Shown in pieces: positions 1-547 of a DNA stretch of 547 bases. Position numbers and translations under genes: made by a program. This DNA comes from Escherichia coli (GTDB lineage: Bacteria; Pseudomonadota; Gammaproteobacteria; Enterobacterales; Enterobacteriaceae). The notes under the pieces are model-generated. The model was not told where the DNA came from and did no database searches. It saw nothing but the letters and a program-made list of their open reading frames with translations. The stretch lies in the NCBI RefSeq assembly GCF_003334385.1, contig NZ_QOWN01000168.1; one strand, 5' to 3'. Position 1 is the first letter of the stretch, and every line of letters starts with the position of its first letter.

Positions 1-24
1 GTAAGCGTACAGCCTGAACCGTCT
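1..24 (+). repeat. Putative left terminal inverted repeat (IRL) of the IS66-family element; the inner boundary is approximate
   Basis: Seen in sequence: 5'-GTAAGCGTACAGCCTGAACCGTCT at the very start of the window. Established knowledge: IS66-family IRs begin 5'-GTAAGCG. The length cannot be fixed without the right end for comparison. Confidence 0.45.
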
Positions 25-71: not shown

Positions 72-473
72 GTGGGAACCAAAGTGTCAGATATGCAGAA
101 AAATGTGACTCCCGGCAGGCGAAAAGGCTGCCCTAATTATCCTCCCGAATTTAAACAGCAGCTCGTTGCTGCCTCCTGTGAACCCGGGATATCCATCTCA
201 AAACTTGCTCTTGAAAATGGCATTAACGCCAATCTGTTGTTCAAATGGCGACAACAATGGCGCGAGGGAAAGCTGCTATTACCTTCTTCAGAGAGCCCCC
301 AGCTACTTCCTGTGACTCTCGATGCAGCTGCCGAACAGCCAGAATCGCTCGCAGAGGACCCGGAAACCCTCAGTATCAGCTGTGAGGTAACGTTCCGGCA
401 CGGGACGCTCCGCTTCAATGGCAATGTCAGCAAAAAGCTCCTGACTCTGCTGATACAGGAACTGAAGCGATGA
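72..473 (+). CDS. tnpA: IS66-family accessory protein TnpA (orf1), a small predicted HTH DNA-binding protein; 133 aa from GTG72, with in-frame alternative starts at GTG84 and ATG93 (127 aa)
   Basis: Seen in sequence: intact ORF ending at TGA 471-473. Residues ~40-60 (nt ~189-251, [22 protein letters not shown]) have a helix-turn-helix-like pattern, followed by an acidic Pro/Ser/Glu-rich linker and a C-terminal leucine-rich helix ([13 protein letters not shown]). Position immediately upstream of, and overlapping, the tnpB-like ORF fits IS66 orf1. No strong Shine-Dalgarno precedes any candidate start, so the start is uncertain. Confidence 0.85.
457..460 (+). promoter_or_regulatory. Shine-Dalgarno-like AGGA for tnpB, embedded in the 3' end of tnpA
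   Basis: Seen in sequence: AGGA at 457-460, 9 nt upstream of ATG 470. Consistent with translational coupling or reinitiation at the ATGA junction. Confidence 0.4.
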
Positions 474-547
474 TCCCGTTACCTTCCGGGACCAAAATTT
501 GGCTGGTTGCCGGTATCACCGATATGAGAAATGGCTTCAACGGCCTG
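470..547 (+). CDS. tnpB: IS66-family accessory protein TnpB (orf2), N-terminal 26 codons only; 3' end truncated by the window edge
   Basis: Seen in sequence: ATG 470-472 overlaps the tnpA stop TGA 471-473 (ATGA). Translation [26 protein letters not shown] runs open to the end of the window. An AGGA Shine-Dalgarno at 457-460 sits 9 nt upstream of the ATG. The N-terminal motif matches IS66 orf2 proteins as recalled. It is absent from the ORF track only because no stop codon falls inside the window. Confidence 0.8.

Follow-up and report, generated by a model that had tools for sequence, protein, structure and literature searches.

In the stretch of Escherichia coli DNA considered here (547 nt, in the following referred to as the window), the start codon of the transposon gene tnpB shares nucleotides with the stop codon of the preceding gene tnpA. 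This raises the question whether translation of tnpB depends on translation of tnpA, as the first-pass annotation had proposed, or whether the overlap reflects nothing more than a compact gene layout. The identity of the element, the conservation of the junction among near and distant relatives, the sequence and predicted mRNA structure around the tnpB start, and the behavior of comparable E. coli gene pairs bear on this question.

Identity of the element

The DNA in the window belongs to ISEc8, a common E. coli insertion sequence of the IS66 family. It represents the left end of this element, including the left inverted repeat, tnpA in full length, and the beginning of tnpB (Table 1). In megablast searches, 3,693 E. 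coli records matched the full 547 bases with an identity of 99.8%, and copies of the ISEc8 left end were present in 3,114 of 5,426 complete E. coli genomes, at up to 24 places per genome. The 99.8%-identical copies are annotated in RefSeq as tnpA, tnpB or ISEc8 transposase, and the gene following tnpB carries the name "IS66-like element ISEc8 family transposase". Outside the window, the TnpC protein of an intact copy scored 462 bits with the NF033517 profile (cut-off 180).

In the intact copy L002, ISEc8 is 2,442 bp long. An inverted-repeat search paired its positions 2501-2522 with 4921-4942, and the element is flanked by the direct repeat TCCGGGAAG, which is the target duplication. Since position 2501 of L002 corresponds to position 1 of the window, the window begins with the first base of the element and of its left repeat. 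The terminal repeats of ISEc8 start with GTAAGCG, and the target site is duplicated over about 8 bp; following ISfinder, we take both features to be hallmarks of the IS66 family. The order tnpA-tnpB-tnpC, repeats of the GTAAGCG type, a target duplication of 8-9 bp, and the ATGA overlap are all common to IS66, IS679, ISEc8 and the element in the window. Compared with the majority sequence of ISEc8, the window copy differs by a single base and in nothing else of substance; at position 433 it has an A where nearly all copies have a G, which replaces Glu by Lys in TnpA.

The ISEc8 copy in L002 is inserted into tnpC of another IS66-family element, which is different from ISEc8 (410-2517 and 4926-5276). 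The tnpA/tnpB junction of this host element is also ATGA, and a strong GGGAGGGG is located before it.

Table 1. Features of the 547-nt window and the evidence from which they derive.
Feature	Position	Strand	Evidence
Left terminal inverted repeat of ISEc8, GTAAGCGTACAGCCTGAACCGT	1..22	+	Inverted-repeat search on intact copy L002
tnpA coding sequence, helix-turn-helix accessory protein of 126 aa, stop codon TGA 471-473	93..473	+	RefSeq WP_001171554.1
Predicted mRNA hairpin enclosing AGGA and the tnpB AUG	452..518	+	RNA fold of 420-520
AGGA, weak Shine-Dalgarno-like tetramer inside tnpA	457..460	+	Seen in sequence; 9 nt before ATG
ATGA, tnpB ATG 470-472 overlapping tnpA TGA 471-473, "-4" spacing	470..473	+	Sequence and RefSeq
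tnpB, first 26 codons, running off the window; full protein 115 aa	470..547	+	RefSeq WP_000612591.1

The tnpA and tnpB genes and their junction

The gene names tnpA and tnpB, assigned in the first-pass annotation from the sequence alone, agree with RefSeq and with the NCBIfam profile scores. TnpA reached 97.2 bits with the IS66 TnpA profile NF047595 (cut-off 74) and matched Pfam HTH_Tnp_1 at 2.4e-12. Full-length TnpB, taken from a copy in which tnpB begins with the same 26 codons as in window positions 470-547, reached 120 bits with NF033819 (IS66_TnpB, cut-off 50), whereas the 26 residues present in the window scored 17 bits by themselves and stayed under this cut-off. TnpB homologues also carry PF05717 (IS66 Orf2).

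The tnpA frame is open from position 72 up to its stop codon. Upstream of the annotated start, ATG 93, an alternative in-frame GTG is located at position 72. No clear Shine-Dalgarno sequence was recognized before ATG 93, and a promoter scan detected no sigma-70-like promoter anywhere in the window, including positions 1-92 between the left repeat and tnpA. The tnpB frame is open from position 386, that is, 28 codons upstream of its ATG at 470. This ATG is the first ATG, GTG or TTG in the open frame, and its Met corresponds to the N-terminus in 11 out of 11 aligned homologues.

The overlap of both genes proposed in the first-pass annotation is exact in the sequence and has the same coordinates in RefSeq. 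Stop and start of the co-oriented genes overlap as NTGA, and ATGA is the commonest stop/start arrangement of co-oriented prokaryotic genes. The AGGA noticed upstream inside tnpA is present as well, separated from the ATG by a spacer at 461-469. Since 470 mod 3 equals 2 and 471 mod 3 equals 0, tnpB lies in the -1 (equivalently +2) frame relative to tnpA; coordinates and open reading frames thereby bear out the offset that had been claimed.

This junction is already known insofar as it is part of the standard RefSeq annotation of thousands of genomes. For IS66-family elements the ATGA overlap is reportedly described, and translational coupling suggested, both by Han et al. (2001) and in ISfinder. 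Our literature search found no accessible paper stating the overlap of IS66 tnpA and tnpB. Han et al. (2001) is cited in PMC6778807, and ATGA is mentioned in PMC2864759 for rit elements only.

Conservation among close relatives

To the two E. coli copies L001 and L002 we added 79 fetched genomic loci encoding a TnpB with 67-100% identity, which came from Enterobacterales, Aeromonas, and many Burkholderiales; together with second elements in some loci they gave 76 distinct junctions. The alignment with other IS66 members, which had been proposed as a check of the overlap, revealed an NTGA in 71 of these (63 ATGA, 7 GTGA, and 1 TTGA; TnpB identity 66-100%). The remaining five comprise one alignment artefact and four decayed-looking copies; in these, tnpA is truncated, 2 nt are inserted, the start is missing, and TGA has become TGC, respectively.

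The 30 nt upstream of the junction vary widely and TnpA is between about 116 and 161 codons long; the frame relation is nevertheless kept. Because NTGA was retained although the preceding 30 nt differ, the junction is conserved beyond chance and beyond what sequence identity explains. A part of this conservation may result from constraint on Met1 and Ile/Met2 of TnpB: among 63 contexts, residue 2 was Ile 57 times and Met 6 times, as NTGA requires.

In a locus of Pantoea stewartii (L080, position 376) the junction reads ATGC. Here the tnpA stop is lost and tnpA extends 20 codons into tnpB, which points either to decay of the copy or to a naturally occurring long-overlap variant.

Distant members of the family

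Among the matches listed in a tblastn search of plasmid records, none had less than about 66% TnpB identity. Distant members with 33-67% TnpB identity were sampled from phage records. An ATGA junction was found in Pseudomonas phage Marin and in one gut contig, and a GTGA junction in the second element of L069. TGATG (-1 spacing) was seen in the E. coli relative L096 as well as in L032 and L034. Human-gut "Bacteriophage sp." contigs (L084-L086, L088 and L090-L095) showed overlaps of 7, 11, 13, 14 and 17 nt. Identical overlap lengths recur across different gut contigs, which suggests junction geometries specific to individual clades. In Streptococcus phage phiStag1 (L087), tnpB lacks an upstream tnpA open reading frame and a split LZ-domain gene was observed.

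Homologues with a different or non-overlapping tnpB start, which the first-pass annotation had regarded as speaking against coupling, do exist: Leptospira phage LE1 (L089) has a gap of 2 nt (TAGgaATG). Nevertheless, proximity is still the rule: in nearly all sampled members stop and start are spaced by +2 to -17 nt, and therefore the distant variants do not refute coupling. The description of ATGA as the usual IS66 arrangement holds for the proteobacterial clade that includes ISEc8, if read as NTGA, but not family-wide for the exact tetranucleotide. Judged from the sequences compared, exact ATGA is a feature of one clade.

Shine-Dalgarno-like motif and local mRNA structure

The duplex of AGGA with the anti-Shine-Dalgarno sequence has an energy of -4.3 kcal/mol, which is equalled by 22% of the 20-nt windows in ISEc8 coding sequence. 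In the relatives, the AGGA positions carry 0.3-0.9 bits and are unconserved outside the close ones, anti-Shine-Dalgarno energies range from +0.4 to -11.8 kcal/mol, and many elements that keep ATGA are essentially without a Shine-Dalgarno sequence. Being weak, at chance level, and not conserved, AGGA was rejected as a significant Shine-Dalgarno sequence. It is a plausible helper, which at most assists, and no signal by itself.

The predicted fold of positions 420-520 has an energy of -30.8 kcal/mol (z = -2.13), only modestly better than shuffled sequences, of which 8 out of 200 folded equally well. Both GGA and AUG are predicted to be paired in the hairpin at 452-518. In ISEc8-like copies the start was mostly paired, and z was between about -1 and -3. 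Over 66 junctions the mean z was -0.6 and the start codon was paired with a probability of about 0.5. Junction windows folded only slightly more stably than in-gene controls (-37.8 versus -35.2 kcal/mol; Wilcoxon p = 8e-4, calculated on non-independent sequences). In view of a mean z of only -0.6 over the 66 junctions, we rejected the idea that the family as a whole has a conserved mRNA structure at this position. According to the fold predictions, the hairpin may gate tnpB in ISEc8, not in the family at large.

Probable translational coupling of tnpB to tnpA

Termination at the tnpA UGA and reinitiation at the overlapping AUG, helped by opening of the hairpin, is the most likely mechanism of tnpB translation, and by analogy with tested E. 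coli gene pairs we regard it as probable. Both genes would be located on one transcript starting near the left end. This common transcript has itself to be assumed, as the promoter scan revealed no sigma-70-like site before tnpA in the window. A ribosome finishing tnpA at the UGA would reinitiate at the overlapping AUG; alternatively, the terminating ribosome would unfold the local hairpin and another ribosome would initiate there. Translation of tnpB would be dependent on, and proportioned to, that of tnpA, and in ISEc8 the hairpin would suppress independent initiation at tnpB.

From five native E. coli gene pairs with a 4-nt overlap, four (hyfHI, astDB, ydbH/ynbE, menDH) were strictly coupled by termination-reinitiation, while the ATGA pair bioBF showed no coupling and initiated de novo (Huber et al. 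2019, PMC6728339). In the same study the contribution of the Shine-Dalgarno sequence was variable among the pairs tested, and the authors suggested that local structures prevent initiation de novo. As models of coupling that do not exclude each other, RNA unfolding on the one hand and reinitiation or scanning of ribosomes on the other have been put forward (PMC12548453). The tnpA/tnpB junction shares with the pairs of Huber et al. the NTGA geometry, an intragenic Shine-Dalgarno-like motif, and a predicted structure at the stop and start codons. In contrast, its Shine-Dalgarno sequence is weaker than that of most of these pairs, and their coupling was shown by reporters with transcript controls, whereas tnpA/tnpB is known here from its sequence.

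Alternatively, tnpA and tnpB might only be co-transcribed, with tnpB initiating de novo at AGGA and ATG and the overlap being a neutral, compact layout. AGGA does lie at a usable distance from the tnpB ATG, but the motif is weak by the duplex energy given above and is missing in many relatives that keep NTGA, some of which have anti-Shine-Dalgarno energies near 0; moreover, motif and AUG are both predicted to be base-paired in ISEc8. The precedent of bioBF, one of the five pairs tested, initiating de novo would fit such a layout, as would the view that the -4 spacing is abundant partly because it easily evolves (PMC12548453). The conservation of A473 may likewise be explicable by TnpB residue 2. 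Against neutrality stands the frame relation, which was held in all but five of the 76 junctions despite the variable length of TnpA. We consider independent initiation of tnpB unlikely.

Retention of NTGA in the proteobacterial clade, while the Shine-Dalgarno sequence is not retained, fits a mechanism of the reinitiation type better than one driven by a Shine-Dalgarno sequence. Together with the longer overlaps in gut-derived distant members, this is a modest comparative addition to the picture of the junction. If coupling is true, the ratio of TnpA to TnpB production would be fixed, which could bear on the control of IS66 transposition; what both accessory proteins do is so far poorly defined. 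Apart from its use for correct annotation, the junction has very little importance, and it confirms a standard ISEc8 left end with an intact tnpA and the start of tnpB.

Frameshifting as an improbable alternative, and the A433 allele

That the -1 offset serves programmed -1 ribosomal frameshifting into a TnpA-TnpB fusion, as in IS3 and IS1, is highly improbable, since in none of the clades was a conserved X XXY YYZ heptamer found within the final 150 nt of tnpA and the tnpB frame is often closed upstream of its start. As in the orfA-orfB pair of IS3 and IS1, two transposon genes follow each other in ISEc8, and the second is read in the -1 frame. In IS3 and IS1, orfB is usually without a start of its own, and a heptamer of the A AAA AAG type with a stimulatory structure gives rise to a fusion transposase. 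In contrast, the start codon of ISEc8 tnpB is conserved and lies at the homologous N-terminus, a slippery site is not conserved, and the ISEc8 transposase is encoded by a separate third gene, tnpC. The open stretch upstream of ATG 470 in the window speaks for a fusion, but several close relatives have a tnpB frame that closes within 1-7 codons upstream of the start, and the length over which this frame is open varies between 1 and 140 codons.

Owing to the A433 allele, positions 431-437 read C AAA AAG in the frame of tnpA. This sequence is located 33 nt upstream of ATGA, where the tnpB frame is open, and the hairpin at 452-518 starts 15 nt downstream of it. However, compared with the canonical A AAA AAG the heptamer is missing its first A, and out of 3,822 E. 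coli records that matched, only one (NZ_CP038360.1, O157:H7 strain F7386) has the allele. It would be very surprising if low-level -1 frameshifting in the A433 copy yielded a TnpA-TnpB fusion beside the separate products. Under the A433-bearing match in NZ_CP038360.1, no feature is annotated. P0088, an E. coli database protein of 145 aa which carries PF01527 and PF05717 and could be taken for a frameshift product, is probably a frameshift-mutant or miscalled tnpA-tnpB fusion.

Additional observations on the element and its relatives

Outside the window, in the 49-nt gap between tnpB and tnpC of the ISEc8 copy in L002, no obvious Shine-Dalgarno sequence was found. A 9-bp hairpin formed by UAAGCCCGG and ACGGGCUUA is located within this gap (L002 3345-3369). 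Its 3' arm reaches the A of the tnpC AUG, and the fold has a z value of -2.09. From this prediction, the hairpin may exert translational control of the transposase gene.

In the Pseudomonas phage Marin (L082 1501-1845) the IS66 TnpB is labelled "transposon-associated TnpB endonuclease". This label appears to confuse the IS66 TnpB with the unrelated TnpB nuclease of IS200/IS605.
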